DNA from: Squalus acanthias
Taxonomy: Eukaryota
Reading direction: 5' to 3'
DNA: 64,000 nt
Assembly: GCA_030390025.1 (NCBI GenBank)
Contig: CM059432.1
Location: forward strand, 69,566,001-69,630,000
In this document: piece by piece, positions 43 to 56,196 of the stretch
How positions within the stretch are numbered: the stretch's first letter is position 1
Layout: each line of letters begins with the position of its first letter
Position numbers and translations under genes: made by a program
The notes under the pieces: model-generated
Database searches by the model: none
What the model was told of the DNA's origin: nothing
Seen by the model: the letters and a program-made list of their open reading frames with translations, nothing else

Positions 43-82
<40 letters not shown>

Positions 83-360
83 TTGCATCCAGGTCCACTC
101 ACATTAGATGCAATGCAGACAGGTCCTCTCTCACCAACATCCAGACAGTCTCTGAGACCAGGCAGTCAACAATGATGACATCATCAGAGGCGACTTTCAG
201 ACTGAAACCACTAATTAGTTCATGGGTTCCCACATGCTGCAACTCAATTGCCCAATTAAGTGAAAATTGCATCAGGCAGCCACATTAATCTGGAGTCGGG
301 CGGGGAACACGAAATGCGGATTACACGACCCCAACCCGACCCCAAGACAAAATCCAGCCC
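1..360. mobile_element. Harbinger-type MITE family E, right part (truncated by the window edge)
   Basis: Highly similar to 60650..61078 and to the end of 32681..33318; ends in AAAATCCAGCCC; internal (TC)n. Confidence 0.8.
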
Positions 361-25364: not shown

Positions 25365-25494
25365 TGGGCTGCTGAGAGGTGGAAGTTCAAGGCGGGGAGG
25401 ATTTTGCAGTTTTACTGCAAACCAACAGGAAAGTTCATACGTCTGATGCCAGATGGCACTGTGGATGCTATTGCAGAGAAGGACGATCACAATG
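25365..25494 (+). CDS. RP1: RP1-like gene, exon F (start of beta-trefoil-like region)
   Basis: aatcag|TGG...AATG|gtatga; WAAERWKFKAGRILQFYCKPTGKFIRLMPDGTVDAIAEKDDHN, similar to the FGF-type LYC..G.FL.I.PDG.V motif; phase 0 to 1. Confidence 0.82.
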
Positions 25495-26262
25495 GTATGA
25501 AAGATTAGAATGCAATGTTGCTATATAATTGGTAATGGAGCATGCTGAATTTTTATTAACATTTTATCAATTTTCCCTTAGTCTGAGTGGTAAGGAGTTC
25601 TAGGAATGAACAGTATCAAAATACCAAATCACAAGAAGTTATATACTATTTATATTCTGAGCTAGCAAAATAATTATAAGACTTGCCAGTAGTTACATCA
25701 ATTTCCTAATGTAAACTAATTAATGTACCTGTCAACAGTTTGGAATAATAACATTGACTCATTCACAGTAAAAAATGTCTGAAATTCCCAACACTCATTT
25801 CATTATTCTGTTATTACAAATTTTACAGCTCATCTACAAATTAGACATTGTTAAAATCAAAGTTACTCAGCTATTGATCTTCTTAAAAATCTTTGTGCAA
25901 AACAAGATAAAATATAAAATACTATTAACATATTCTCACTGCAGAAGTATTACATGTGTGCAACCATAGAATTATATATTTAGTAAATGCCATAGCATAG
26001 AAATTACTGTTTGCGATAAGATATGAATAGCTAACATTTTAAACATTTGTAAATTAAACAAGTTTATTTCCTGTTGGTGCTGATCACAGATTTATATATT
26101 CTTATACCTCTCCCTGGTGCTCCCCAGTGCGCACCACATCGTAATTAAAAGTTCAGCAGTATCATTAGTTGATGGGACTCTACAGCGCTACATCTCACAT
26201 TTACATCGACACAATTTCTCGGGTCTTGGGGTAGAGTGCTAGTTTCAAAGAGGTGCGAGAAG

Positions 26263-27517
26263 ACATAGATACATAGATACATAGAAGATAGGAGCAGGAG
26301 TAGGCCATCCGGCCCTTCGAGCCTGCTCCGCCATTTAATGAGATCATGGCTGATCCTTCAATTCAGTATCCCGTCCCCGCCTTCTCTCCGTAACCCTTAA
26401 CCCCTTTTGCCTGTAGAAATATATCTAATTCCCTCTTAAATATATTTAATGAGCTGGCGTACACTGCCCTCTGTGGCAATGAGTTCCACAGGTTCACCAC
26501 TCTCTGAGTGAAGAAATTCCCCCTCATTTCTGTCCTAAATGGTTTAGCCCTTATCCTTAAATTATGTCCTCTAGTTCTGTTCTCACCCGCCAAGGGAAAC
26601 ATTCCTTCTGCATCTAATCTGTCTAGACCTGTCAGAATTTTATACACTTCTATGAGGTCCCCTCTCAATCTTCTAAACTCCAGTGTGTACATCCCTAAAC
26701 TACATAGTCTCTCCTCATAGGTCAATCCCGCCATTCCTGGTATCAGCCTGGTGAATCGCCGCTGCACCCCCTCCATGGCAAGAACATCTTTCCTCAGATG
26801 AGGCGACCAAAACTGTACACAGTACTCGAGGTGTGGTCTCACCAGTGCCCTGTACAGCTGCAGCAAGGTATCCCTGTTCCTGTATTCCAACCCTTTTGCT
26901 ATGAAGGCCAGCATACCGTTTGCCTTCTTGACCGCCTGTTGCACCTGCATGCTCGCCTTCAGTGACTGGTGTACAAGAACACCCAGGTCTCTCTGTACTT
27001 CCCCCTCTCCCAATTTATTGCCATTTAAATAATAATTTGCCCTCCCGTTCCTGCACCCAAGGTGGATAACTTCGCACTTGTCCACATTATAGTGCATCTG
27101 CCATTTATCCGCCCAATCACCCAGTCTGTCCAAATCGCTCTGGAGCTTCCTGGTCTCCTCCTCTGAGCCCACCCCCCCTCCTAGTTTAGTGTCGTCTGCA
27201 AATTTGGAAATGCTGCATTCGACTCCCTGATCCAGGTCATTAATATAAATTGTGAACAGCTGGGGACCCAGGACAGATCCCTGCGGTACCCCACTTGTTA
27301 CTGCCTGCCATTCAGAAACTGAGCCGTTTATTCCAACTCTCTGTTTTCTATCTGACAGCCAGTTCTCTATCCACGTCAATACTTTCCCCTTTATCCCATG
27401 AGCTTCAATTTTCCATGCTAATCTTTTATGTGGGACCTTATCGAAGGCCTTTTGGAAGTCCAGGTACACCACATCTACTGGCTCTCCCCCATCTATTTTA
27501 CCAGTTACTCCCTCAAA
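26263..27517 (-). mobile_element. Young 5'-truncated CR1 with intact 369-aa ORF2 C-terminus and (TATGTATC)n tail
   Basis: ORF 26363..27472 has no disablements; octamer tail reads acatagat-acatagat-acataga on +. Confidence 0.95.
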
Positions 27518-28163
27518 AAGACAGATGAGGATGTGAAATAAGGTGGGACTTAGAAACAGCAGGCTTCCGCCCCGAAGATCTAAGTCTGAGAATTCCTGCT
27601 AGGGGCAGGAACAGTGCGATGGAACTTACATTCACCTGATTAAAAACCTGATGTGTAAAAAGAAGGCAGAGCCGGCGGGATGTCATCATCCATGGATCCC
27701 TCACTGCTTCCATCTCCTCTGCCCTAAGTGTCCAGGCTACCGGCAATATACTGGCATTCAGTTCAGTGGCAGAAGTGGGTCCCACAGGGGATGTCTCAGC
27801 CAGGGTCGTAGGCCTGGAACACCCCAGAAGAATAAAATGGGCCTCTGATCTCATCAATTGTGGCAGTTAGAAAATCATGCTGCAACCTTATCACTTAGGC
27901 AGTTTTTCTGCACTCCATCCTGCTGCCCGGCACCCCCTCTCCCAGCTGATGGATAGGGTTCATTCTGGCACGGGTGTCCACCAGATTTATTAAAATTTCC
28001 TGACCCTACTTTGACCCTGGATATTCCAGCACAGTCAGGTTCTAAGTACACTGGTGGGGCATGATTGCCACTCTGCCATAGTTATGGTGGTGGAGTGGGG
28101 TCATGGGTATTTGGCCTCAAGCCTTTAATTACTGTGGGTAGGTAAACCTATCCAAACAGTATA

Positions 28164-28562
28164 CAGGAAACTCTTTATTAACCGGCACCGACGGGACCGG
28201 CGTGGTGCCGGTTTATCGAAAGTACCGAATAACAGAGAGTTATATCTACCGAGGCTATTTTTAACAAAGAAAAATAAATAAATCAAGAAATGTGCAGTAT
28301 ACTTCCGACAGCGCCAGGAGGCCGAGTAGTGGCACTTTTGAAAACTACCCCTACTGACTAAATCGGCGTTCGCGGACTCGGACTCGGGATCGGTAACATT
28401 GCCGGTTATTTGAGAGGAGTTTTCAGAGTACTCGGCGTTCGCGGAGACTCGACTGCGACTCGGCAACATTGCCGGTTATTTGAGAGGAGTTTTCGGACGA
28501 TTATTTTTGCCGGTTAAGCGAGAATTCCGGATATTTGGGTGCCGGATAAACACAAGTTTCTG
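28164..28562. mobile_element. pogo/Tigger-like (Tc1-mariner) MITE, copy 1
   Basis: TA flanks; imperfect ~24-bp TIR CAGGAAACTCTTTATTAACCGGCA; CpG-rich; internal repeat aacattgccggttatttgagaggagttttc. Confidence 0.8.
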
Positions 28563-29766
28563 TACTGTGAAAGAGGTCCCATAATAGTTTATTTTCTAAT
28601 TTCTCATCAGTGCACCTAAACCTATCAGCCATCAAACAGGGCTTTTGAGTCCTGCACTACTTCAACACTTGCTCCTTATTTGATTGGTTGCATAGTGGAT
28701 GCGCTACTGTATGAGGTGGCTGAGAGGAGGATTACTCTTTATGGCAATCCAGGGTACTCTCCTCAGAGGGCAGCAGTGGCAGGAGGTGCCAGTCAAGATC
28801 TATTCTGTTTTTAGTGCCTGCAGGATCTGGGAACAGATGCAGAAGAGAGCGAGTTTAAGAAAGCAGCTAAGATAGAGCTACCCAACCCAGGTAGATTGCC
28901 CAAGTATGTACTCCACAACGTGTTGCTTGTCAACCTGTTACTCATTTACTGCTGGTGCAAGCAAAGCACTCAAGACAACCTTACTACTCTTTCCATTGCT
29001 TATCATACAAGGGACACATCCAAGCTACAACCTACACTGAAGCCCTTGGCACATGGATACGGTAAAAAGGTTCCATACAACAAATCATTCTATTATAACT
29101 AAGCTGCATCATCACTTACAGAAACACAGGATGAGCTACAGGTTGGTATGTGCTGTTGCAACTTACAGCGTCTCAAGACTATTGCACATAATACAAGAAC
29201 TGGAGGAGGCCCAGAAATTAAAATCCTTTAACTCCCTTTGAGGAGCTCACCGTGGACACCTTGTCTGGATGAGCACTGAGGCAATAGGGGAAGATGAAGA
29301 TGTAGGCCTGTCAAATCTCGGGGTTGATGCTGTCCGTTTCTTGTTATGATTTGTCTACTCACTGACAAACAGGAATATACAGAACTACAAAAATATCACG
29401 CACATTATCATACTTTTGTATGGAGCAAGCCTTTCAACATTTGAAGGGGGCAAAATTTGGTAGCCCCTGAAAACGGGTGCGGGGATCACGATTAACCCGC
29501 GCCCGTTGCTTCCAATGCAGGCAGCACGCCAACCTCGTGCAGCCTGCTAAGTAACATGATTGCAGCGTGCAGCCAGCGCTAATCACGCTGTTGAGTGGCT
29601 CCACACCTCAGCAGGGGGCACAAGATTGTGCGAGGCTAGCACCAGTTAAAGCTAGCCTGCACTACGTAAAGCCAGTCTGCACCTCTTAAAGGGGAAGTGC
29701 ATTCTGGCTGGAGCAGGTGCTGGAACTGTTTGTGGAATAGAGTCTGAGCAGGAAGAAGAGTGAATT

Positions 29767-31170
29767 ATGGCACAACAGGGGAGAGAGCATGCTTCAAGGT
29801 TCTCTGGTGCTGCACTGGAGGCCTTGATGGAGGAGATGGAGAGGAGGAGCAAGGCCCTTTATCCACAGGGGGCCAGGAGGCCCTCCAGACAAACTCTACG
29901 AAGGCAGTGGGAGTAGATAGCCGTGGCGGTCAATGTCAGGAGTCAGTCCCGAGGACCTGGATGCAGGGCTGCAAGAGGTTCAATGACCTCACACAAGTGG
30001 TCAAGGTCAGTGAATGTATCTTCAAATGCCATATCCCACCAACTGCATCACTAGCCTCAGCAACTGCTCAATGCACCACACACCCATCACTCAACTACCA
30101 ACAATCTCTATCAATCACAGCTCATATCTAACATTCAAAGCTTCACCACTCTCACACTTAGCACTGCTGCAAGCCTCACACCCACATCTCACAGCTTGCA
30201 CACACTGCCAGCTATTCAACCATGACAGGCACATCACCCAAACAGATTGTACCATACTCACTGACACACTTCCCTCTCTCTTGCAGGGCAAGTTGGCGCA
30301 CAACCGGAGGCAGCCGGAGCTAACCGGTAGGGGACAAGCACGGCTGCATGTCCTTACCCTGATGAAGGAGACGGTGGTCGCCATCATTGGAGTGGTCATT
30401 GCTGAGCCCGTGGCCAGTGGTGGAGCTGAAACCATTGATGATAATGGTATCCTCCTTCTCATATCTCACTTCTCCCTATCTCTTCTGATTTACAAGCTGC
30501 AGATGGTGTAAGCATGCACCTCTTGCTTTCACCCCCTCCCCAAACCACAACACTAGTCTTGTGTCTTTCTCCTTTCAGATACCCAAGAACTGCAACCTGG
30601 CCAGGCAGTGGTGAAAGAGCAACAGGTGGAAGAGCAGGGAGACAGTGATGAAGAGGAAACACTGTCGCTCGATTTCGCACATACAGCCAACAGCTTGGAT
30701 AGCTTAAAGGAGGGATCTGCACGTGGTGAGACACCGGGCATGAGTGGCCTGCAGCCAGGGCAGGGGACAAGGGTAGCGCAGGTGCCAGCTCGCTGGGGGC
30801 AAGGTCGCACACGAGTACTGCTGCAGAGGACTCAGATGAGCACATCAATGGGGTGGGCTACAGAAGAAGGCTGATGGGTCTGCCCAATGAAATACTTGGT
30901 GCATTGGTAGGCCTGCAGGAAAGCCTGCGTGCAATGTGAAGGAGCATGGAAGAGTCCGGCACCAACTTGGCACAGGGTTTTGCGCAGAGCTTGGAGCCCA
31001 TCCTTCCTAGCATGGAAGTGGTGGCCAACTCTGTTAGCACGCTTGCGGACTCAACCATGATGCAGCGTCGGATGTCTCAGTTTCCATTGCAGCACAAGCA
31101 GAAACCACCCAACATCTGGGTGCTGCAGTGGAAGCTCAGACTTCTGTCATGCAAGATCAGCTTGCTGCCA
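29767..31170 (+). pseudogene. Harbinger-derived spliced Myb/SANT (MSANTD/NAIF1-like) gene relic
   Basis: Exon 29767..30005 MAQQGREHASRFSGAALEALMEE...QWE*IA...RTWMQGCKRFNDLTQVVK|gtcagt; exon 30287..30446 GKLAHNRR...TG.G; third exon from 30579; stops and frameshifts. Confidence 0.78.
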
Positions 31171-32416
31171 CGGAAGCTCAGGCAGAGTGGCGGGCTGATC
31201 GATCGCGGGCAGGAACCCGCGGAAAAAACGAGAACAGGAAAGGCAAGTTTTTTTTCCACTTACCTTGGCCACCTCGTCTTTAATCATCGCCCCCGAAGCG
31301 GCCGGCTGCCCGATGCACGCCTCCTGCAGCTGTCGGTGTTTTCGCCCGGCACTGTTGCAGGGGGTGGAAGTCAATTTCGGGTCCAGGGCGATGCGCACGC
31401 CGATGACGTCACGATCTCCGGGCGAAAGAGATCGGGGCGCAACGCCGTAGCGCCGCCGCAAAACTTCTGCCGAATATAGCAGTATAGCAGGAGTCGATGT
31501 CAGCGCCGCAACCAGTTGCAAAGACATTTGCGCCCCGTTAGTACCCCAGGTGGCGCTAATGGGAGGCGCAAAGGCACCCAATTTCACCAACTAACACTTT
31601 AACCTCCCACCCGACCCCAACCCAACCGTTTTTTAGAGTTAAAATTCCTCCCACTGTTCCTCACTGAGGTTCAGGTAGGAAAATTGCTCCCTGAAAAGCC
31701 TGGGCCGATATGGCCTCCTGCCGAGAGTATTCTCTTTCTCCTCCTCACTCTGCTAGCATCTTGTCATGCTCTGTGTCACTTCAGCTCATTCTCCCTGTCA
31801 TGCTGTAGTCCAAGTAGAATGCCTACTACTGCACCAATGTCTGGGAGCAAGTGATTTGTGCAGAATCCATGAAGTCAGGACTAATCCTTCAGCACCTGCC
31901 ACACCACTCCCTGTAGACTTTTAGAAACTTTAGAGAACTCTAGAAACCACCAAACACTTCTACAATCATAGCAACAGCCAGTAGAAATCAGTCAGCAACT
32001 AACCTGTAAGTAGTTGATGATCCCTTTAAATAGCGCTGTTGGGGGTGTTCCTTCCTGCTGCTGAACACATGTTCAGCTGTGCGTGTTTAAGAGAGGGTGT
32101 TAGCTGGAGCGTTGATTTCCAAAATGGCAGCGCTGATGTCACGACCTGCCTACTCTGCATACCTCCGGTGCACACTCCCTGCGCATGCGCTAATGCACTC
32201 ACCAAGATGGCGTCCAGCACGGCTGGCACCAGAAGTGCGCGCGCACACACCGCGGACACCGTTTTGGAACCTAAATGGCACTCGTAGCATCCAAACAACA
32301 TGCGCTACGGAGCCGAATTTTGCGGCCGAAGTCAATGGAAATGAAACTCGGGAGATATGCGTGATGCTGGCAAGGCAGCATTTATTGCCCATCCCTAGTT
32401 ACCCTGTGGACATTAA

Positions 32417-33874
32417 GGGCTCGATTTTGTCAATGGGGACGTGATGGACGCGGGACTCCCACTTTTTGGGTTGTAGTCCCGCCTCCATCGATTTGTGGTC
32501 AACCCATGCTACTTTCCCTTGATTAACCTTGTTAAGCCCGTCCAGCGGGCTCAGCAGGCCAATTAAGGGACACCTGGATACTGGTGACGTCAGCGATTGA
32601 CATTTCATCTGTCGAGAGCTTTTGACAGATGAAATATCAGCGTTTGACAGCTCTGTGAAGCTGTCAAACACTGACAATCTGGGCTGGATTTTCATTGACC
32701 CGTGGAGGCGGGTTTGGAGGCGTGTGGGGGGTTAAAATTGCGAAAACTGGCGGGCGGACACAAGTCCGCCTCCACGCAATTTTCATGAAATCGTGTCTGC
32801 TGGTCCCGACTGCGTCCCGCCTTTAAGAGACAGGATAGGCTGTTAAGGCCCTTAACAAGCACTAAATTGGCTCTATAATGCCAATATGAAAGGCCTTTGT
32901 GATTTTAACCCTTGTTCTACGTGAAGCACGCCTGTTCTGAACCACGATTCTGAAACCTGGCGGGAGCACATTTGGCTGGATCTCTCTCTCTCTCTCTCTC
33001 TCTGTCTGTCTGTCTGTGGTGGTGTAAAAATATCTCGGCGCAGACTTAGGGCTGCTGCTGCTCATTTTGTATCCAGGTCCTCTCACAGCAAAGGCCAGGC
33101 AGTCTTTGCAGACCTTCAATGCAGTAGCAATGATGACATCATCAGAAGCGACGTTCAGACTGAAAACACTAATTGGTTCATGGGTTCCCACATGCTGGAA
33201 CTCAATTGCCCAGTTAGGTGAAAATCGCATCAATCTCCCACATCCAATTGCAGTCGGGTGGATAACACGAAAAGTGGATGACACGACCCCAACCCGCCCC
33301 AGTATCAAAATCCAGCCCTCTGTCTTCTAACTTGAGTCCTTCTACTCAGACTCAGTTGGAGAGCTCTCCAGACCAGCTTTTGACAGCTCAGCGGCCATTC
33401 TGCTTTCTGTGCCGGTGAGCTGAGGGACTCCCGAGACCTGAAGGGAGGAAGCCTGGAGGAGAAAGTAAAAGTAAGTAAAACTTATTAAAACACTTTATAC
33501 ACACCAAACACACTTACCTCTGCACTCATGCACCCATCACTCACCTGTACACCGGACATCTCGACCCCTCCAAGCCCTGCAGACCGATGGTCCGCCTCGC
33601 TAACTTGGATTGGTTTGGAGCCGTCGGGCAGCCCACACTTCAGGGCTAAAAATAGGGATTAGCCAAAAAACTGCCTGTTAACTACCTGTTAACAGGCAGT
33701 TAATTGGCACTAATCCCCTTCCCGCCTCGGGGAGGTGGCTCCCAGCACAGGTTGGGTACCTGCCTCCTGGGACATTGGCATGGGAGCAGGATGGGTACGT
33801 GCCCCCCGAATCTGCAATTTTCACACCACTCCCGCCTCCAAACCCACCTCCACGGGGCTTGGAAAATCGAGCCC
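32417..33874. mobile_element. Harbinger-type MITE hosting a family E copy
   Basis: TIR GGGCTCGATTTT / AAAATCGAGCCC; TSD TAA. Confidence 0.88.
32681..33318. mobile_element. Harbinger-type MITE family E
   Basis: TIR GGGCTGGATTTT / AAAATCCAGCCC; TSD TCT; internal (TC)n(TCTG)n. Confidence 0.88.
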
Positions 33875-34238
33875 TAAGAGTCAACCACATAATGTGGGGC
33901 TAGAGTCACATGTAGGCCAGACCAGCTAGGGCATGACAGGTTCCCTTCCCTGAAGGACTTTAGTGAATCAGTTAGATTTCTATGACAATCAAGCAGCTTT
34001 TATGGTCAATCAATGGAATTTTCCCATTTTTAAAACTACTGTTGAGAGCCCACTATAAAAGATTATAATCCAGTAAATAAACTAAAATACTGTAGTGTAA
34101 TTACCTTCACAGTCCATGGACCAAAAATAAATTCCATAGCTGCATTACAGTATATTCTGTGTTTTAATTTCACATCAAATACTATTAAGACCTCAGACAG
34201 GTCCATTGGAGGATCAAAATATGTCAGTAGAAGATAAT

Positions 34239-34994
34239 TGCCCGTAATTTCCGATAGGAGGCTTCCTGCGTGCGGATGCCTCCTATCGGAAAAAAATCTA
34301 TGAACTTACCTGAGGGCTCCCGAGGTCCGGACACTTCCGCTCCTGGGCCTCTCCACAGTCGAAATGCGCAGGGCCCACGTATCCCAGGGGCGCATGCAGT
34401 TCGCAAGCATCCCTGGGATCACGTGGGCCAGGCCAGCCAATAGAAGAAGGGAATCTCCCTTCATACTTTTGACAGATAGACTTGTCAAATATATGAATGG
34501 AGATCACCTCAAAAACACAGTAAAACATTAAATAAATTGTTTTTTAAATCACGTTTTTAAAATGAGTTAAAATTACAATAAATTAAATATTTTAACCAAA
34601 AATTAAATTTTTTGAAAAAAATAATTAAAGTTTTTTACTGGGCTAAAAATAAACGTAACTTTTTTTAAAGTATTTGAAAATTATAAATGAGTGAAATTTT
34701 TTTAAAACTTTTTTTCAACTCTTATGCTGGTAAAAGCAGGCCTTACGCTTGCTTTTACCAGGCATCAGATTTCTAAGGGATTTCAGCGGGCAGAGGTTCT
34801 GCAGAAAGTGGAACACTCCACCCGCAGAGGCCCTTCTCTATAGCAGACGTCCAATCTGTCAAGAGCATTCTTGACAGATCGGAAATGCCGGTTTTCAGCG
34901 CATGCGCTTAGCATGCCTGAAACTGGCATTTCCGATGTCCCTACGGGTGTGTACACAGCCCGTACACGCCCGTAGGCATCAAAAAATACGGGCC
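34239..34994. mobile_element. Harbinger-type MITE family D, copy 2
   Basis: TGCCCGTAATTT / AAAATACGGGCC; TSD AAT. Confidence 0.82.
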
Positions 34995-35492
34995 AATACT
35001 TATAAACTTAATTCAAACTATGTAGTGCATCAGATTGGTACATTAAGGGTAATTTATCTACTTTGCGCATTCTTGAATTTGTGATATGTGCTGCCACGAG
35101 GCGAAGCTTCCTCCCAGCAGGGCAAAGTTAGAAAATTGCCCATGCTGTTCTTACTGCTGCAACCTAAGATTGAACCTAACTCTGACTGAGGGATGATTGT
35201 CATTGTCATTTGGCTGTAAGGGCACTATGTGATGGAGGTAACGCAGTTCCTCATGGGAACCTCACTCTGAAAGGCCACAAGGATCGTGGGTTTGGGATGT
35301 GAGAAAGAAGTGTTGCAAATGGTGCCATGGGAGTGATCTGTAATTGGGGCTAATTGTCGGGGCAGAGTAGATGGATCTTTACTCTGTATACTATATACTA
35401 GTCATGATGCGGAGATGCCGGTGTTGGACTGGGGTGGACAAAATTGAGAGGTCGCACAACACCAGGTTATAGTCCAACAGTTTTATTTGAAA

Positions 35493-35534
35493 TCACAAGC
35501 TTTCGGAGCTATCGATTGCTCCTTCCTCAGGTGA
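35493..35534 (-). ncRNA. Minimal hammerhead ribozyme, mirror copy
   Basis: Exact reverse complement of 37651..37692. Confidence 0.85.
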
Positions 35535-35866
35535 AGTAAATTAGATACAGAATCGCCAAAGCATATATAGATAGAAAACAAAGCATGTGTACTTTACAAT
35601 TGCAGACCAATAAATTAAATCATCCTGACTATCTGCCGAGGTGTGATAAAGTTAATTAAGTCAGCCAGGAAGGTACCACATCAAAGACATAGCAAGATAC
35701 AACTGAGACAATGAGGTGTAGTCGCAGGGGTTCTAACGTGTCAAAAGCTGCCGTCTGTATGTAAAACGAAAAGCTTTAACATTTTTTTACTTTTTTACTG
35801 GGAAAATTTTTACTTTTTTACTGGGAATCACATCTGTGAACAAGCTAACGACGACTCGAGTCCGGA

Positions 35867-36599
35867 TCACGTCATGTATCGTGACATAAACCCAAGATCC
35901 CGATTGAGACCGTCTTCATGAGTGCGGAACTTGGCTATCAGTTTCTGCTCGATGATTTTGCGTTGTCGTGTGTTTCTAAGGTTGCCTTGGAGAACGCTTA
36001 CCCGCAGATCCGAGGCTGAATGTCCTTGACTGCTGAAGTGTTCCCCGACTGGGAGGTAACAATCCTGCCTGGCGATTGTTGCGCGGTGCTCGTTCATACG
36101 TTGTCTCAGTGTCTGCATGGTCTCGCCGATGTACCATGCCGCGGTGCATTCTTTCCTGCAACGTATGAGGTAGACAACGTTGGCCGAGTCACATGAGTAT
36201 GTACCATGTACCTGGTGAGTAGTGTCCTCACGTGTGATGGTGGTATCTGTGTTGATGATCTGGCATGTCTTGCAGAGTTTGCCATGGCAGGGTTGTGTGG
36301 TGTCGTGGTCGCTGTTATCCTGAAAGCTGGGTAATTTGCTGCGAACGATGGTACTTCTGAGGTTAGGCGGCTGTTTGATGGCAAGTAGTGGAGGCGTGGG
36401 GATGGCCTTAGCGAGGTGTTTGTCGTCATCGATGACATGTTGAAGGCTGCGAAGAACATGGCGTAGTTTCTCCGCTCCGGGGAAGTACTGGACGACGTAG
36501 GGTACCCTGTTGGTTGTGTCCCGTGTTTGCCTTCTGAGGAGGTCTATGCGATTTTTCGCTGTGGCCCGTCGGAACTGTCGATCGATGAGTCGAGCGTCA
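35867..36599 (-). pseudogene. PLE polyprotein C-terminus: linker, Cys motif and GIY-YIG endonuclease (RT lost by 5' truncation)
   Basis: DARLIDRQFRRA...PCHGKLCKTC...NVVYLIRC..C...WYIGET..TLRQRMNEHR...E..LI..F.T...GLN; uninterrupted frame. Confidence 0.9.
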
Positions 36600-37318
36600 T
36601 CGATCGACAGTTCCGACGGGCCACAGCGAAAAATCGCATAGACCTCCTCAGAAGGCAAACACGGGACACAACCAACAGGGTACCCTACGTCGTCCAGTAC
36701 TTCCCCGGAGCGGAGAAACTACGCCATGTTCTTCGCAGCCTTCAACATGTCATCGATGACGACAAACACCTCGCTAAGGCCATCCCCACGCCTCCACTAC
36801 TTGCCTTCAAACAGCCGCCTAACCTCAGAAGTACCATCGTTCGCAGCAAATTACCCAGCTTTCAGGATAACAGCGACCACGACACCACACAACCCTGCCA
36901 TGGCAAACTCTGCAAGACATGCCAGATCATCAACACAGATACCACCATCACACGTGAGGACACTACCCACCAGGTACATGGTACATACTCATGTGACTCG
37001 GCCAACGTTGTCTACCTCATACGTTGCAGGAAAGAATGCACCGCGGCATGGTACATCGGCGAGACCATGCAGACACTGAGACAACGTATGAACGAGCACC
37101 GCGCAACAATCGCCAGGCAGGATTGTTACCTCCCAGTCGGGGAACACTTCAGCAGTCAAGGACATTCAGCCTCGGATCTGCGGGTAAGCGTTCTCCAAGG
37201 CAACCTTAGAAACACACGACAACGCAAAATCATCGAGCAGAAACTGATAGCCAAGTTCCGCACTCATGAAGACGGTCTCAATCGGGATCTTGGGTTTATG
37301 TCACGATACATGACGTGA
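36597..37318 (+). pseudogene. Mirror copy of the PLE GIY-YIG ORF fragment
   Basis: Same protein as the minus-arm copy apart from F/I at LLA(F/I)KQ. Confidence 0.9.
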
Positions 37319-37650
37319 TCCGGACTCGAGTCGTCGTTAGCTTGTTCACAGATGTGATTCCCAGTAAAAAAGTAAAAATTTTCCCAGTAAAAAAGTAAAA
37401 AAATGTTAAAGCTTTTCGTTTTACATACAGACGGCAGCTTTTGACACGTTAGAACCCCTGCGACTACACCTCATTGTCTCAGTTGTATCTTGCTATGTCT
37501 TTGATGTGGTACCTTCCTGGCTGACTTAATTAACTTTATCACACCTCGGCAGATAGTCAGGATGATTTAATTTATTGGTCTGCAATTGTAAAGTACACAT
37601 GCTTTGTTTTCTATCTATATATGCTTTGGCGATTCTGTATCTAATTTACT

Positions 37651-37692
37651 TCACCTGAGGAAGGAGCAATCGATAGCTCCGAAAGCTTGTGA
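37651..37692 (+). ncRNA. Minimal type I hammerhead ribozyme in the PLE pseudo-LTR
   Basis: TCAC-CTGAGGA-A-GGAGC(aatcgata)GCTCC-GAAA-GC-TT-GTGA: stem I, CUGANGA box, stem II, GAAA box, minimal palindromic stem III, UH site. Confidence 0.85.
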
Positions 37693-38123
37693 TTTCAAAT
37701 AAAACTGTTGGACTATAACCTGGTGTTGTGCGACCTCTCAATACTATATACTAACCATAGTTTGTATATTGCACTAAGCTGTGCACTGTAAATGCTCTTC
37801 CGTTTTTCTCATTTTCTTTTCATGCATTCTTTATTGCTTCCTCTTTTCTACTCACTTTTCTTCTCTTTTTATTCTTTTCTTCTCATTTTTACTTTCTTCA
37901 CTTTTCTTCTCATTTTCTTCAATCCTGAGTGTAATTGTTGAAAAGTTAAAGGGCCCAATTTAATCAGCCTAGACAGTTAGAACTGAATCCACAGGCAGCC
38001 GCTGGGCTCAAAGACACTACGTGACTCCTCTTAGCAATGAAATCTATTGACAGAAGTGCATTTTGATTCTTTTCTGATCGTTATGATTTGACTATATTAA
38101 CATAATTTCACTTTGTTTTTAAG

Positions 38124-38227
38124 CTCTTTTTGAAGTTTCTGTCAAAAAGAAAGGCATTCAAGTATTCAGCAGTGTGGTTAACCCAACTCTAGCTCTTGCT
38201 ATTGATCATAATCGAGTCAATGGTTCG
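38124..38227 (+). CDS. RP1: RP1-like gene, exon G
   Basis: tttaag|CT...TCG|gtaaga; (A)LFEVSVKKKGIQVFSSVVNPTLALAIDHNRVNGS; phase 1 to 0. Confidence 0.78.
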
Positions 38228-39557
38228 GTAAGAAAATTCAAGACGTTTAGCCATATTGTATCAGTGATTAGTAAAGCAGAAGACAATAAATTGTAATCCA
38301 ATTTCACATGTTTTGGGAAGGTCATTTAGGGTAGGAAGGCAGAGAAAGCTGAAAGGTCGATAATGAAAGAAATTATCGACCTACGCTTGACTGATTTATT
38401 TGTGTTTTTCGGTCGCATTTTGCGTTGGAACCCCAGCTGTTTTGCAGGCAAAAGTTGTATAACTGTTCTGTCAGAATTCGAGTCAGAACCATTCCTACAG
38501 ACTCTGTAAATATGCAGCTGCCTAAATATTTGCATGTATTCATTAACAACTTGCATTTATATAGCAGCTTTAACATAGAATAACACCCAATGCACTTCAC
38601 ATAGACATAATCAGATGCTAAGCCAAAAAAGGAGATATTAGGAGGGAAGAGGTGGATTTTAATGAGGGTCTTAAAGGAGGAGAGGGACATGGAGAGGTAG
38701 ATGGGCTTAGGTAAGGAATTCCAGAGTGTGGGGCCTATGTAGATAAGAGTATGGTTACCTATGGTGGGACAAGATGGGCGGGGGAGGGGGTGACAAGAGG
38801 CCAGAGTCAGAGGAGTGGAATTTAGGGGCTTGCAGGGGTAGAGGAGGTTACAGAGATAAGTAGGGCAAGGCCATGAAGGAATTTAAACATGAGGATGAAA
38901 ATTTTAAATTGGAGGCATTGTATGTCAGGGTTGATAGGTGAGTAGGATGGTGTGGGATATGATATGGACAGCAGAGTTTTGGATGAGATGAAGTTTATGG
39001 GGGGTTGGGGGGGGGGGGGGGGAGAGTGTTGGAGAATGGGAGGCCAGCCATGAGTGCATTGAAATAGTTGAGTTTTGAGGTGATAAACGTGTAGATGAGG
39101 GTTTCTGCAGCAAATGGGCCGAGTTAGAGGCAGAGGTAGGCAATATGACAGAGGTGGAAGTATGCGGTCTTTGTGATGGAAAGGATATTTGGAAGCTCAG
39201 CTAAGGGGCAAATAGGATGCATAGGTTGTGAACAGTTTAATTCAACTTGAGACAGTGGCTGGGGAATGGATATGTTGCAATTAACAAGGGGATGGAGTTT
39301 GTGGCAGGAAACAAAGTTAATGACTTTGGTCTTCCTAGTGTTTAAATGGAGGAAAATATGGCTCATCCAAGACTGGATGTCTGACAGCACAGAAGCAATG
39401 GATGGGTCGGGAAAGGTGGTGGAGAGATAGAGCTAGGTGTCGTCAGTGTACATGTGGAAGCTGATCCAATATCTACAGATGATGTTGCTAAGGGGTATGT
39501 AGATGAAGAAGAGGTGGGGGCAAAGGATAGGTCCTTGGGGGGATTCCAGAGATAATG

Positions 39558-41712
39558 AGGGGGTGACTAGGTGTGTGGATGAGGGTAACGCAGTGGATGT
39601 GGTATACATGGATTTCAGTAAGGCCTTCGATAAAGTCCTGCACAGGAGACTGGTCAAGAAGGTAAGAGCCCATGGAATCCAGGGTGCCTTGGCACATTGG
39701 ATGCAAAACTGGCTCAGTGGCAGAAGGCAGAGGGTGATGGTCGAAGGTTGTTTTTGTGACTGGAAGCCTGTGGCCAGTGGGGTACCACAGGGATCGGTGC
39801 TGGGTCCCTTGCTGTTTGTGGTCTACATTAACGACTTGGATATGAATGCAAAAGGTATGATCAGTAAGTTCGCGGATGATACAAAAATTGGTAGGGTGGT
39901 AAATAGCGAGGAGGGTAGCCTCAGTCTACAGGACGATATAGATGGGTTAGTCAGATGGGCGGAACTGTGGCAAATGGAATTTAATCCGGAAAAGTGCGAG
40001 GTGATGCACTTTGGAGGGACTAACAAGGCAAGGGAATACACAATGAATGGTAAGACCCTAGGCAAGACGGAGGGTCAGAGGGATCTTGGTGTGCAAGTAC
40101 ACAGATCCCTGAAGGCGGCGGAACAGGTGGATAAGGTGGTAAAAAAGGCATATGGGATACTTGCATTCATTAGCCGAGGCATAGAATATAAGAGCAAGGA
40201 GGTTATGATGGAGCTGTATAAAACACTGGTTAGGCCACATCTGGAATACTGTGTGCAGTTCTGGTCGCCACACTACAGGAAGGATGTGATCGCTTTGGAG
40301 AGGGTGCAGAGGAGATTCACCAGAATGTTACCCGGGCTGGAGTGCTTCAGCTATGAAGAGAGACTGGGCAGATTGGGTTTGTTTTCCTTGGAGCAGAGGA
40401 GGCTGAGGGGGGACATGATTGAGGTGTACAAAATTATGAGGGGCATAGATAGGATGGATACTAAGGAGCTTTTTCCCTTAGTAGAGGGGTCTATAACAAG
40501 GGGGCATAGATTCAAGGTAAAGGGCGGGAGGTTTAGAAGGGATTTGAGAAAGAACTTTTTCACCCAGAGGGTGGTTGGAGTCTGGAACTCACTGCCTGAA
40601 TGGGTTGTGGAGGCAGGAACCCTCACAACATTCAAGAAGCATTTGGATGTGCACTTGAAATGCCATAGCATACAAGGCTACGGACCAAATGCTGGAATAT
40701 GGGATTAGATTAGACAGGGCTTGATGGCTGGTGCGGACACGATGGGCCGAAGGGCCTCTATCCGTGCTGTATAACTCTATGGGGGAAAAATTCAGTTGGT
40801 TGCGCCTCCCGTTAGCGCCTTAAGAGGGCACTAATGGGGCGCAAAGCATCTGGCGCCGGGGCGCAAAGCATCTGGCGCCCAGGTGCGACGAAGTTTGCGC
40901 CGCTCGCGAAATTAACTAGACATTTTGTGGCGGCGCTAAACACTACCGCCACGATCTCCTGCACCGGCAGATCGTGACGTCAGTCGAGTGCGCAACGCCC
41001 CGGTATCGCCCCGGAGCGGGTATTGAGTGGCGCCCCCTGCCTTACCGCCTGACGCTAGCAACGACAGGTTGAGGGGAGCGTTCTGCAGTCATGAAGGGAA
41101 AGGGGGAGCGCTATTTAAAGGTGACCGATTCCTGCCTTTTATTGTTGGTGCCATTTTTGAACTACGCATTCTGAGAGAGAGAGGGAGAGACTTCTGGAGA
41201 GATTCAACGTTGTGTGAAGGAGTTTTGGGTACTGAGCAGCACTTTGCAGGTTCATTTTGATTTGCCATTCCTTGTATCGATTTAGAAGAGACTCTGGGGG
41301 CTGCACTCTGAGCTCTTTGCCTGGTACTCTCCATTGTTCTTTCCAGCAGATTTGATGTGCAGGTCTCTCCAGGCCGAGATTCAAGGCTGCAATGAGCATG
41401 ATGTGGATGGAAAGCAAGATTAACCATCCCCTTTAAGAACTGGCCCGTGCCATTGTGTGTGTGTTCCATTGCTGACTGACATTACATGAGCTTCGCCAGT
41501 GCTCTGAGGTAGCGCCTCGCTCCTCGGCCTTTGCGCCTTAAGACAGGTGTGAAGCGCCTGATTTAGCGCTGCAATCACCTCCAGGGTTGATAAAAGTCAA
41601 GTTTGCAGTCGGTGGCGATAATTAGCGCCAGGCGCTAATCTTTGCGCCCGGCCGATAATTGCGCCCCAAATGGGGCGATACTGAATTTCTCCCCCTATGA
41701 CTCTATGACTCT
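39558..41712 (+). mobile_element. Young 5'-truncated CR1 (intact ORF2 C-terminus to 40708), tail interrupted by a MITE
   Basis: Uninterrupted RT frame; TSD ATAATG at 39552..39557 and 41713..41718; (ACTCTATG)n tail. Confidence 0.93.
40781..41695. mobile_element. Harbinger-type MITE family A, copy 2
   Basis: TIR GGGGGAAAAATTCAG / CTGAATTTCTCCCCC; TSD TAT; sits inside the (ACTCTATG)n tail of a CR1. Confidence 0.9.
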
Positions 41713-43044
41713 ATAATGGTGTGGGGGTGGGAAGAGAAGCCATTGTTGGAGGTGCTCTGGCTGCGATCAGATAGGTAAGAGTGGAACCAAGTGAGGGTAG
41801 CCCCACCGACCTGGACAACAGAGGAGAAACATTGGAGGAGGCTGGTGGGATTTATCATATCAAAATCTGCGGAGTGGTTGAAGAGCATAAGGAGGGATAG
41901 TACACCACTGTTACAGTCAGAGACTGTCATTTGTGACTTTGGTTAGTACTGTTTTGGTGCTGTTGAAAGGGCTTAAACCTGATTAGATAGTTTCAAGCAT
42001 AGAGATGTGGAGGTGACAACGCATTCAAAGACTTGAGAGAAAATGGGGGTTGGAGTTGGGGCAGTAGTTTGCAAGGTCAGAGGGGTTGAGCATGGATTTT
42101 TTGAGGCCGAGTAATGATGGCAATTTTGAAAGAGAGGGGGACAGTACCTGAGGCGAGGAACCATTTACTATGTCAGCTAGGGCTGTTAGGTGGGTCAGTT
42201 TAGTGGAAAAAGGGTCAAGGGAGCAGGAGGTGGGTCTCATGAGCAAGGTGATGTTGGAGGGGGCATGAAGAGAGATAGAGAAACTAGAAAAGACATGGGT
42301 TGAGGGCTGGGCAAGGGGGAGCTTGGGGGGAGGTTTGGTTAGGTGGGCATGGGGAAGGGAAGGAAGCAGCAGAGGCAGCGGAACAGATGGTCTCAAAGAG
42401 GTCCATGATCTCCTCGCAAATGTTGGAGGTGAGGACCGAGAGGGCAGGTGAAAAGTGTTTAAGGAGACTCAGATTAATAATTCATAAGTGCAACCGTAAC
42501 ATTACAAATTTGGAACGTACATTTATTGTGAAAATAGCAATAACAGATTGTATTGATGTGAATTTGATCTGTTTTGCATGTGCAAATTAGGTAAATGCTT
42601 AACTTTGCCCAATAACTCAAAACTTACTAGTCCTATATTTGTGGAATGTAGACAATTATTAATTATGCTGAAAGCATAGATTTGAAGTATGATAATTAAA
42701 TCTCGTGTGCACAAATTAGCTTAATTGCTGATATATTTTCTCCATCTCATAAACTATAAGTCTTATCTTAGGTACTCACCATATTAAAAGGGAGCCAAGT
42801 TAATATACCAAGTTATATTAAATTTAATTTGAGTGTGCAAATTAAACTAAATATAAAATACTTTTAACTGTCTTACCAAAAGTTGCTGCTACTCTAATTT
42901 ATATCAAGACAGAGTGAGAGAGAAAGAGAGTATCATCCATTTTGTATATTCCTGTGCCATATATTGTATAATTTTTAATACTCTATGTTAGAAATGTACT
43001 TCAAGGGTCAAACTATCATACTGATCAAATATGTTGTGCTGCAG

Positions 43045-43221
43045 GAGAAAACTGGACCTCTTTGTGAATTGACGGTTCACCCTAAGACCAATCGCTCTGT
43101 AATACTAGAGTCTGTTCAAATTCCGGGACAGATAATTGCATTCAACTCAGAAGGAAGGCCTGCTAATGCATCATCTAAGGAGTATTCAGAGATTATCAAA
43201 GATTTTGTTGTCCATGTTAAG
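43045..43221 (+). CDS. RP1: RP1-like gene, exon H
   Basis: ctgcag|GAG...AAG|gtactg; EKTGPLCELTVHPKTNRSVILESVQIPGQIIAFNSEGRPANASSKEYSEIIKDFVVHVK; phase 0 to 0. Confidence 0.8.
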
Positions 43222-44500
43222 GTACTGGTAAAAATCAGAAAGTCTTGGTAATGTTATTATTAATATCAAGTATAATGAAGATAGTATGAATAATTAAATA
43301 ATTTCACAACCAGAGGTGGTAGTTTCCTTGAAGTCACAGATGAATTTATCAGCAGTGTCATAAATAGTTTTGTGCAAAAACCTGAATTTTCCTTCAGTGG
43401 TAGAAACACAATTTGATATGCAAATAGTCATTTTACTTTCTAAACAACCACTTTGAATTGCACTAGTAGTTAGAATTTTGAGGTGCGAGAGGCCAGGGGA
43501 GTGTGAAAAGCCAGAAGAATGTGCAGTTTAATGAGAATGATTGTGACATAAATATTGAAATTTTCATTTATATATTTTACTGTGTTTTGAATTTAAATGT
43601 ATTTTAATTTACTTCATTTTAACTGTTCAAAACCAGGCACTGTTTATAGTTGTTTATTTGATGTCTTAATTAAGAACTGTTTTGAGGCACTAATAAGTAA
43701 TTAATAGGCTATAAACGAGGTCTATTTAGCTGTTCTTTGATTAGCAGTTTTTTCTTGTGACAGTTGGGCTATAAAACAGTATAAATTTGAGCTGAGTAGA
43801 GACCGCTCAAACTCAATCTATGATAGGCCGGTGTAGTATGAAAGGCTAGAAGAGTGTGTAGTTTAGCTTCAGCAAGCATTCAGCCTTAGAGGGAGCTCAA
43901 CCTTGAATTGTCATTGGACAGGAATTTTTCCCCCCTAGAATATTTGTGTGAAGTGAGTAGGAGGAATTTAACTCTTGTGAATATGGTTCTAGTGAGAGTT
44001 CAAGCTAACATTATCTATATTTTTAAAGTTAAATACAAGAATATCAGTGGAAGGAACCCTATTGGTGGGCCGTAGAATTCTATGATTCTATCACGGATCC
44101 CCAGTTTATTCAGGGGCAGCACATTTGCATTACGCGTCAGTAAATTGAATCTCTGGAGCGGAGGATCGCTGCTGGAGCAGCAATTTTCCACACTGCAGCA
44201 TTAGTTAGGATGGGCGGTTTCTGTAACATAGGCCGCGATTCTGTTCTTGGAGGCGGGTTGGCGTTGGGAACGGAGCTCGGCGGATTCCGGACCCCCTGCC
44301 GACACCAGCCGGCCTTCTGACACAATTTTGGTTTAATTGGGCTAATTGAGCCCGCCGTGTGGGTTACCCGCACTCATCACAAGATGCGCGTCTGTTCAGC
44401 TGCTCTGCTGGCGCGTGTGCAGCCAGAGTACTGAAGGGGGCCATTCCACAGTTACATCTGAAGTCGTTTATGCTGCTCCTGACTGCTGCTGGTCCTCAAT

Positions 44501-46643
44501 ATGTCTGCAGAGAGACAGAAGGCAGCTCCCCGGTTCAATGAGGAATCCCTGCATGTTCTTGTTGAGGGAGTCAGAGCTCGTCGTGAGGTCCTGTACCCGG
44601 GAGATGGAAGAAGGAAACCTCCTCAGCAGACGAAGGCAGCCTGGCTGTGAATAGCTGGAGAGGTCAGTGCCAGGTCAATGGTAAGATGCACTTGGATTCA
44701 ATGCAGGAAGAGGTTCAATGATCTCCGGCGTACAGGAAAAGTGAGTATAAAAGCACTATTCCCTTAATTCTGCTATGCCTGCCATCACATCCGCATCACT
44801 TTGCATTGTCAACCCTACTCCTGCACATCCTAACTCAACCCAACATCACTTGCACCATCAACCTTCCCTCTCTCCCTATGTACAGAATCACTTTCCCATC
44901 TAACAATGCACCCCTCACACCCACCCTCAAGGTTATGCAATGACAACTAGCAACTCAAAAGGAGGGAACTTGGTAACTCCATCGTAGTCTCCCTCCAAAC
45001 ATCTATCCTATCCATTCTATACACTCATTCCATCACTCTCACTGAAAATCCAATTCTTTCCCTCATTGCAGGAAAAGAGAGCCCACAATAAGAAATGTCT
45101 TTACTCAGAGGGTGGTGAACCTGTGGAATTCTCTACCACAGAAGGCTGTGGAGGCCAAGTCACTGAATATATTTAAGAAGGAGATAGATAGATTTCTAGA
45201 CACAAAAGGCATCAAGGGGTATGGGGAGAGAGCGGGAATATGGTATTGAGATAGAGGATCAGCCATGATCATATTGAATGGCGGAGCAGGCTCGAAGGGC
45301 TGAATGGCCTACGACTGCTCCTATTTTTCTATGTTTCTAAGAGGGAGAGGGGGAGAACAGGAGGAAGACCACCATCCGTGGCGCAGCTGACCAACGCTGA
45401 GGAGGCGGATCTAGACATTGCTGGAGGTCCTGAGGAGCTTGAAGTGAGGGACGGAGAGACGGGCTCAGTCAAGCAACCTGATGACAGAATTATTTTGCAG
45501 ACATCTGATTTGGCATTCATGAGTGACAAATATGGGATCTGATGTTCATATTAATGTAGTCATGATCATGTGCACAATGTGTCTGCAATCTACATATCAC
45601 ATGTGTAACTCATGTCGTTACTCTCCCACAGGACCAGCAAGAGCCCCCCTCCCTACTGTCCAGGAAGAAGAGCAGGAGGACTCCTCAGAGGAACCTCCAT
45701 CCTCTGAGGGAGCAGCATTAGCAGAAATGAGTGCACCCAGCACCAGCGCAGAGACGCACACCTCGGTGGGTAGTTTGCGACATAGAGTAGTATTGTCACC
45801 TGGCGTTTCACATCTCACAAGTGAGCAAGAGCAGATGGTGGAGACAGGGACAGCAGTGGAGAGTCCTCGTCGGAGGCCGCAGGATGCTCCTAGCTCTGCT
45901 CAGCTGCATGTAGATGCTGAGCCTCTGGGGCCATCCAGAAAGAGAGCGGTGCTGGACCTTCAGGAACAAGTGCAGGAGGCTCTGACTGGCTTTGCAAGCA
46001 CAGTGACTGCAAGTGTGCAGAGAATGGAGGAGTCCATCTCAAACATGAGCAATGCCATGGCGCACGCAATGGCGAATGTGGGTTCTGCAATGGAAAGGAT
46101 GGCAACCTCCATGGAGGACATCATTCACCAGAATCAAAACAACCTGGTGACTCTTCCAGATAGATTGTCCACTATGGAGCATAGAAGGGCATCTATTGTG
46201 GAGAGGAACCAGAGGTACATGGATGTCCCCGTTATGAGGACTGTCAGTACAGAGACGGGTCCACATGGCCCCACTGATGTGCAGCAAGGTGCTCTCCAGC
46301 TACTTGCTAGCAGAGAAGTGCGAGTGCCCCATGAGAGGGATGATGGTGGGAGGGGACATGCAAGTGACGGCTCCTCTCCAAGCGCTCAAACTTCCATCCC
46401 CTTGCCAACCGTCGGTCAGAGCCCCAGATGAGCACCCAAGCAGTGATGGCCGAGTCTGCCTCTGTGCAGCCGCAGGAGGAGCAGACTTTGGCGGGGCCTT
46501 CACATGCTCCAAAACGCAGAGGACGACCGCCAAAGGTGTCTAAACAGGCACAGCGGGGAAGTAAGCAGACTGTCTCTACATCTGCTGAAGTCACAGGGGG
46601 AGCACAACATAGAAGCATGCGTAAGAGAAAGATGACACATTAA
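44501..46643 (+). pseudogene. Myb/SANT DNA-binding protein gene of the Harbinger element
   Basis: Exon 1 44501..44740 MSAERQKAAPRFNEESLHVLVEGV...AWL*IA...TWIQCRKRFNDL|gtgagt; exon 2 from 45072 (EKRAHNK.RER.RTGG); exon 3 from 45631; C-terminal KRRGRPPK after a frameshift. Confidence 0.85.
45094..45337 (+). mobile_element. Short CR1 3' end inserted in Myb/SANT exon 2
   Basis: Matches the reverse complement of 10670..10890; TSD TAAGA (45089..45093 and 45338..45342). Confidence 0.88.
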
Positions 46644-55983: not shown

Positions 55984-56196
55984 GATGCATTTAAAAATGG
56001 TACAGTAGTTTTGCTGAATACTAGTCTTTACCAGAGTCTGTACATCACTTCTGATGGAACCTGCTTCGGAACAGGAAAACAATTTCAAATGTCATATTTG
56101 CGGGTGCATGAAGTCAGTCCTAAGGTTTACATGTTTGAGAGTGTACAGAATCCACAAAAGTTCATACAAATCAGGGATGGCAAATGTGATGGACTG
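55984..56196 (+). CDS. RP1: RP1-like gene, exon I (second beta-trefoil-like unit)
   Basis: tttaag|GAT...CTG|gtgagc; DAFKNGTVVLLNTSLYQSLYITSDGTCFGTGKQFQMSYLRVHEVSPKVYMFESVQNPQKFIQIRDGKCDGL; phase 0 to 0. Confidence 0.82.

Follow-up and report, generated by a model that had tools for sequence, protein, structure and literature searches.

A minimal hammerhead ribozyme in a young two-armed PLE insertion of a Squalus acanthias intron: a probable passenger, predicted to be inactive in the host pre-mRNA

The window analysed here, a whole stretch of 64,000 nucleotides from Squalus acanthias (contig CM059432.1, positions 69,566,001 to 69,630,000), carries exons of a host gene on its plus strand. The exon at 55987-56196 matched two proteins among nine candidates, both from sharks (91% and 81%), which are named lipoxygenase-homology-domain-1-like and carry PF03607, PF01477, PF00167 and PF24938. 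We take the host gene to be of the RP1 type, with a doublecortin, PLAT and trefoil architecture. When the two shark proteins were aligned by tblastn the exons fell in plus-strand order, and the upstream host exon and exon G (Table 1) were consecutive; the placement is that of tblastn, two crude exon finders having missed exon G, and splice sites were read for the upstream exon. Since the two exons are consecutive and on the plus strand, the motif studied here lies on the sense strand of the intron between them (25495-38123, 12,629 nt).

The preliminary description had placed a minimal hammerhead followed by an AATAAA hexamer in this intron, with an identical hammerhead on the opposite strand. 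All letters of both motifs and of the opposite-strand copy were confirmed in the sequence, and the hexamer, put at about 420-430 nt before exon G, was measured at 420 nt. The motif contains the boxes CUGANGA and GAAA...UH as CUGAGGA, GAAA and U16.1-U17, an extra base between positions 9 and 10.1 (A37662), the G10.1-C11.1 pair, and the palindromic 15.1-16.1 word AGCT standing in for helix III. Because the exact 42-mer matched the genome 3,570 times and the relaxed core 27,138 times, while the reversed control pattern gave no match in either search, the hammerhead is not a chance match. Folded in isolation, it had only a modest advantage over shuffled sequences (z −1.89, with 7 of 200 shuffles equally good); stems I and II were predicted with pair probabilities of 0.65-1.0, and helix III was absent from the predicted monomer fold. 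The preliminary description had named an Infernal search as a check of the motif. With the Rfam models, scanning positions 30000-45000 at E values up to 1 returned seven matches, none of them to a hammerhead family, a miss that we attribute to the absent helix III. Both a model match and a stable helix III, by which a canonical hammerhead is defined in Rfam, were thus absent. The two best Rfam matches were miRNA-precursor models on the hairpin centre, and were rejected as both lay under their gathering scores.

Table 1. Positions of the hammerhead, the insertion that carries it and the neighbouring host exons in the window
Feature	Positions	Strand	Basis or remarks
Upstream host exon	25365-25494	+	tblastn, 91% to P0002 residues 541-585
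Left TSD copy, 13 bp, ATACTATATACTA	35388-35400	.	
Left arm	35401-36600	-	second 5'-truncated copy, ends at long site (+133)
42-nt tail	35401-35442	-	left arm only
Palindrome arms	35443-36588 / 36597-37742	- / +	1146 nt, 2 mismatches, 99.8% identical
Second hammerhead, identical	35493-35534	-	antisense partner of 37651-37692 on the host transcript
Mirror of candidate promoter	35535-35569	-	antisense to host
Centre	36589-36600	.	8-nt loop of element sequence and 4-nt microhomology
Right arm	36597-37742	+	5'-truncated PLE, putatively Neptune-type; ends at short site (+91 from hammerhead start)
ORF remnant of right arm	stop at 37318	+	zinc-finger-like linker and GIY-YIG domain
Candidate promoter, facing exon G	37616-37650	+	TATA-like and initiator-like motifs, sequence only
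TATA-like TATATAT; initiator-like stretch	37616-37622; around 37648	+; +	
Minimal type-I hammerhead	37651-37692	+	sequence, pair probabilities, covariation
Stem I (TCAC/GTGA)	37651-37654/37689-37692	+	sequence
Core CUGAGGA; extra A	37655-37661; 37662	+; +	sequence
Stem II (GGAGC/GCTCC)	37663-37667/37676-37680	+	8-nt loop including ATCGAT
GAAA; self-complementary AGCU	37681-37684; 37684-37687	+; +	sequence
Predicted cut site	between 37688 (U17) and 37689	+	sequence
AATAAA of element leader	37698-37703	+	pairs with 35482-35487 in the hairpin
Right TSD copy	37741-37753	.	first 2 nt overlap the arm end
Exon G	38124-38227	+	tblastn, 91% to P0002 residues 584-618

Conservation or covariation of the two stems across family copies had been proposed as a mark of a genuine ribozyme, and both stems were found to be kept and to covary. 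The alignment comprised 19 family rows picked by hand from the sampled loci, with recurrent variants favoured; most one-off variants, five rows of a second family and one mis-cut row were left out. Its 171 cells were 98.8% paired, as compared with 16-51% in slid controls, the rows being hand-picked and related by descent, the shuffle control lenient and its counts not probabilities. Two of the nine stem pairs had changed on both sides and two more on one side, and the core columns were invariant in all 19 rows. A search pattern altered at the second pair of stem II gave 499 matches, mostly mutated copies, with 374 for the control, and revealed the second minimal-hammerhead family, located at L170:292-328, L231, L234, L251 and L255. 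In its five structure-aligned rows nearly every pair differed and the stems were kept in 5/5, as was the self-complementarity of the helix III word, ACGT in place of AGCT; stem I reads AGTT/GACT, and no AATAAA occurred within 110 nt downstream. At the cut position, C replaces U in about 3,160 copies (3,482 minus 318). The palindrome ATCGAT noticed in the stem II loop is present at this locus, but it is limited to some subfamilies: others carry AGC, AGCA, AGCC, GATA or TGTA instead, the full-length tandem units having GATA. Two hammerhead copies were predicted to co-fold through ATCGAT with −35.3 kcal/mol; as the loop varies among subfamilies, a loop function as a family feature was ruled out.

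The hammerhead and its opposite-strand copy lie in the arms of a 2.3-kb head-to-head palindrome, at the centre of which both arms have in common the microhomology TCAT (36597-36600). The right arm was 98.6% identical to full tandem units of the element at L277, and its GIY-YIG domain gave a weak Pfam match just under the cut-off (E 3e-4). Only two positions differ between the arms, so the insertion is young. Such close identity is also what a fold-back read in the assembly would produce, in which case the antisense copy would be unreal, a reading to which we give a negligible probability: the palindrome has a 13-bp TSD, a tail of 42 nt on one side, two differences between its arms and a centre made of element sequence; its outer junctions were both found in independent short-read contigs (the right one in X1 and X2, the left one in X2, perhaps the source sample); and the identical layout was present at 130 sampled two-armed loci, the window's included. 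The element junction is carried by contigs X1 and X2 although their flanks depart from the window at 37850, 38007 and 38245, so the insertion may not be confined to a single haplotype. In two further organisms (B and C), contigs matched each flank and then continued with different sequence, the left-flank match stopping at 35389, and none of those listed bridged the site. Being young and joined to neither flank in these two organisms, the insertion is not a conserved host element.

Full-length units of the element were found at L277 (G000:C2:211212500-211222400) and L278 (G000:C1:223719500-223729400) as 3,138-bp head-to-tail tandems with open 892-aa ORFs, in which hammerheads lie 3,138 nt apart on one strand; at L278 a further copy lies inverted. 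The family seems to have been active recently. The single ORF combines a reverse transcriptase domain above the cut-off (RVT_1, E 2.7e-8) with a C-terminal CX4CxxC linker (C-HGKL-C-KT-C) and a GIY-YIG-like region, which is the composition of EN+ PLEs, as are the tandem and inverted layout, the tail and the TSD. A CX2-5CxxC linker before the endonuclease defines the Neptune/Nematis type (PMC8557442, from its available text), and its presence here points to an element of that type, a clade label that goes by the linker motif. In both L277 and L278 the hammerhead precedes the 892-aa ORF: within the leader it is followed by the AATAAA and then by the ATG, 82 nt past the start of the hexamer, which 282 of the 283 arm matches contained, duplicates included. 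The leader position in full tandem units supports the assignment of the motif, made in the preliminary description, to the minimal hammerheads of PLE pseudo-LTRs. Near-identical TSDs recurred in separate insertions, being of the CCACAGGG(G/A)(A/G)GT and TT(C/T)ATAAATAGA types (L033, L046, L062, L070; L041, L047, L051, L056, L070, L072, L079), which suggests preferred target sites within other repeats. Two loci 114 kb apart on contig C1 (L058 and L059) have identical arm ends and reverse-complementary TSDs, and are probably an inverted segmental duplication.

The layout of the palindrome was compared in two samples, the first of 82 stretches (the window plus 81 loci that take in the first 100 exact matches along contig C1) and the second of 148 loci obtained with other patterns. 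A long end was paired with a short end in 34 of 40 two-armed units of the first sample, six having an end outside both classes, and in 85 of 90 units of the second, five having one unclassed end; there were thus 119 long-short pairs among 130 units, and neither a long-long nor a short-short pair among them. In the 34 pairs of the first sample the short arm reached further 5' in 16, the tail arm in 12, and both equally far in six. Because the short arm reaches further in 16/34, a single cDNA primed at the tail and folded back is insufficient, and the end pairing and the arm reach both fit priming at two fixed sites, from either end of the target. In such a scheme the endonuclease would make a staggered cut of 13 nt, reverse transcription would likely be primed by both target ends, starting in one case at the tail site (+133) and in the other at the short site (+91), and the resulting pair of cDNAs would be joined at the 4-nt microhomology. 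The centre of the window's insertion, taken alone, also fits snap-back self-priming, and a snap-back at the centre is possible as the joining step.

Arm ends were also counted by position. Among 325 distinct ends at the sampled loci, 181 were within +82..104 and a further 134 within +118..133, measured from the start of the hammerhead, so that 315 fell at two fixed sites downstream of the AATAAA; eight more lay at +60..81, none of them followed by an A-run, and two between the main sites. Poly(A) templates were ruled out, as an A-rich stretch followed only four of the 325 ends, all at the normal sites. As genomic copies run through both motifs, the template RNA was uncut at its last hammerhead and was not polyadenylated after the hexamer. 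Hence, the AATAAA to which the preliminary description had drawn attention is indeed there, but it is a family-wide leader motif that the template RNA reads through; it may end some transcripts of the upstream tandem unit. Genomic copies grouped by their first matching base at +37, +38 and +39 were estimated at about 31, 95 and 71 per flanking letter (200 x 14/30 over three letters, 318 x 18/30 over two and 493 x 13/30 over three), several of the joints at +38, the cut-site position, being microhomologies with the antisense of stem I. Some hammerhead cutting may occur in the element's own RNA.

Upstream of the hammerhead, 5' ends of arms were concentrated between −7 and 0 (18 of 107 in these 8 nt, the three 8-nt bins upstream holding 4, 4 and 6). 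This pile-up and the promoter-like motifs (Table 1) suggest the position of the element's start site, and a promoter may face outward from either arm, in the right arm toward exon G and in the left arm antisense to the host. An RNA begun in the right arm would bear the ribozyme but not its antisense. It might accordingly be supposed that the relevant activity is that of the arm's promoter, with RNA starting at about 37648, carrying an unmasked 5' hammerhead, running into exon G and perhaps dimerising in trans with RNA of other copies. We consider this quite improbable: the TATA-like and initiator-like motifs are correctly spaced and the 5' ends pile up at −7..0, but the motifs are a consensus match only, the pile-up could reflect a reverse transcriptase that stalls at the hammerhead, and the arm sample was conditioned on the whole motif being present. 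A palindrome of 2.3 kb is, moreover, a likely silencing target. Pseudo-LTRs of PLEs have been described as promoters of downstream copies (PMC6765202, PMC3846280, in their available text), which speaks for such an activity.

With respect to the host transcript, the preliminary description proposed that the antisense copy lying upstream in the same molecule could mask the ribozyme. Masking is strongly favoured energetically, the duplex of the hammerhead with its antisense being predicted at −84.4 kcal/mol and the monomer at −12.2 kcal/mol, and opening of the outer hairpin with both strands folding alone at a net cost of about 149 kcal/mol; these values are predicted for equilibrium and leave bound proteins and editing out of account. 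It is, however, automatic in a head-to-head insertion and not a special arrangement. Likewise, the ribozyme does stand on the host sense strand, but this too is automatic, as transcription of either strand reads an antisense copy first. Next to its 40 two-armed units, the first sample had 49 arms scored as single, a figure that takes in a wrongly parsed pair, a duplicated locus and some bystander copies; insertions with one arm, which are unmasked, are about as frequent as two-armed ones. Since masking is automatic and unmasked insertions occur about as often, there is no indication of a host role.

The reading that we hold with high confidence is that the hammerhead is a passenger, the standard pseudo-LTR ribozyme of a young two-armed PLE insertion, and that it is predicted to be inactive in the host pre-mRNA. 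Once the host polymerase reaches the far side of the centre, the right arm would pair progressively with the left one, and the hammerhead and the AATAAA would emerge at the growing end of a duplex of about 1 kb. Even unmasked, a single copy that has no helix III would need a second copy on the same strand, or help from a protein, and the two-armed insertion holds no second same-strand hammerhead. The likely working place of the hammerhead is the tandem element transcript and not the host RNA. The near-perfect intronic RNA duplex of 1.15 kb (35443-37742) is the kind of structure on which A-to-I editing or the production of small RNAs would likely act.

It could still be argued that, before the hairpin closes or after it opens, the ribozyme cuts, or the AATAAA ends, a share of the host transcripts, in which case the RP1-type transcript would be lowered or shortened. 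The core is intact on the sense strand, and the GU-rich stretch that follows the hexamer (about 37722-37732) would give the two the appearance of a usable poly(A) site in single-stranded RNA; intronic hammerheads of amniotes have also been proposed, as an unproven effect, to affect pre-mRNA processing (PMC6765202, in its available text). We regard such an effect as very unlikely, given the predicted 149 kcal/mol in favour of masking, a hammerhead with neither helix III nor a same-strand partner, and an insertion that is young and unjoined to the flanks in the contigs of organisms B and C. Nor is the hexamer alone in the intron, whose sense strand holds nine AATAAA (4.4 expected from composition), the eight others all upstream. 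Positions 37640-37663 on the plus strand comprise, as read by eye, a branch-point-like CTAAT, then pyrimidines and AG dinucleotides inside the hammerhead core, which if single-stranded could act as a cryptic 3' splice site before the hexamer. An unlikely extension of these thoughts is that both the ribozyme and the AATAAA act on any host pre-mRNA in which they are single-stranded, and that two-ended priming serves as a built-in silencer: a two-armed insertion would mask its ribozyme and poly(A) signal on transcription of either strand, and selection would be such that it purges one-armed sense intronic copies while tolerating two-armed ones; were it true, tens of thousands of shark copies would be a natural test of minimal hammerhead cutting in vivo.

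Dimeric PLE hammerheads are reportedly the subject of work by Lunse et al. According to the available text of Cervera and De la Pena 2014 (PMC4209133), cleavage was low in dimers of minimal PLE hammerheads and not seen with single ones, and tandem units such as those found here are the layout proposed to permit dimers (PMC4209133; PMC6765202). For the anole Poseidon hammerhead, the available text of PMC11167929 reports that a protein was needed, that the ribozyme was dispensable for insertion and that no RNA-seq read ended at the cut site.

As described there, the minimal hammerheads of metazoan PLEs (PMC4209133) are, like ours, of type I with a helix I of 4 bp and no helix III, and have the extra base between A9 and G10.1, the G10.1-C11.1 pair and a palindromic 15.2-16.2 word; they share, too, the pseudo-LTR location, the thousands of scattered copies and the close opposite-strand pairs. 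Helix II differs, being 5 bp in the window, and the 27,138 relaxed matches outnumber the roughly 4,000 of the coelacanth and 9,000 of Xenopus, though by differing search methods. Sharks are unnamed in the results and discussion of that paper, whose supplements may list shark motifs. Unlike domesticated amniote intronic hammerheads, which occupy a conserved orthologous position in single copy, the present one has 3,570 exact copies. In a literature search that covered few subscription journals, we found no paper on shark PLE palindromes and none on antisense masking of intronic PLE hammerheads. Minimal PLE hammerheads and the two-armed layout are already published. The hammerhead of the window is most likely a silent passenger. 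As one of thousands it matters little by itself, and the family offers tens of thousands of natural hammerhead variants, masked and unmasked, for the question of cutting in vivo.

The insertion resembles two-armed insertions of EN+ PLEs, as far as the available text of PMC3846280 and PMC8557442 describes them, in having arms placed head to head, a tail on one side, a TSD, a short palindrome where the arms join and a CX2-5CxxC linker of the Neptune/Nematis type, with a tail of 42 nt here and of 30-40 nt there. PMC3846280 reads the joint as self-priming, whereas the further reach of the short arm in 16/34 pairs fits two-end priming better. The closest parallel to the arm ends is the Anolis Poseidon element PAc (Frangieh et al. 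2024, PMC11167929, in its available text), in which two reverse transcription start sites bound the tail and likewise lie downstream of an uncut hammerhead. PAc, of the Poseidon clade, has an ORF that begins within the hammerhead, while the ATG here follows about 90 nt after it, and the main text of that paper gives no model of inverted two-armed insertions. The strict rule of one tail and one short end would be a genomic record of the integration step that the same text leaves unvalidated. In vitro, both target strands of PAc were cut and extended (PMC11167929), which matches the two-end priming that we infer from the shark copies.
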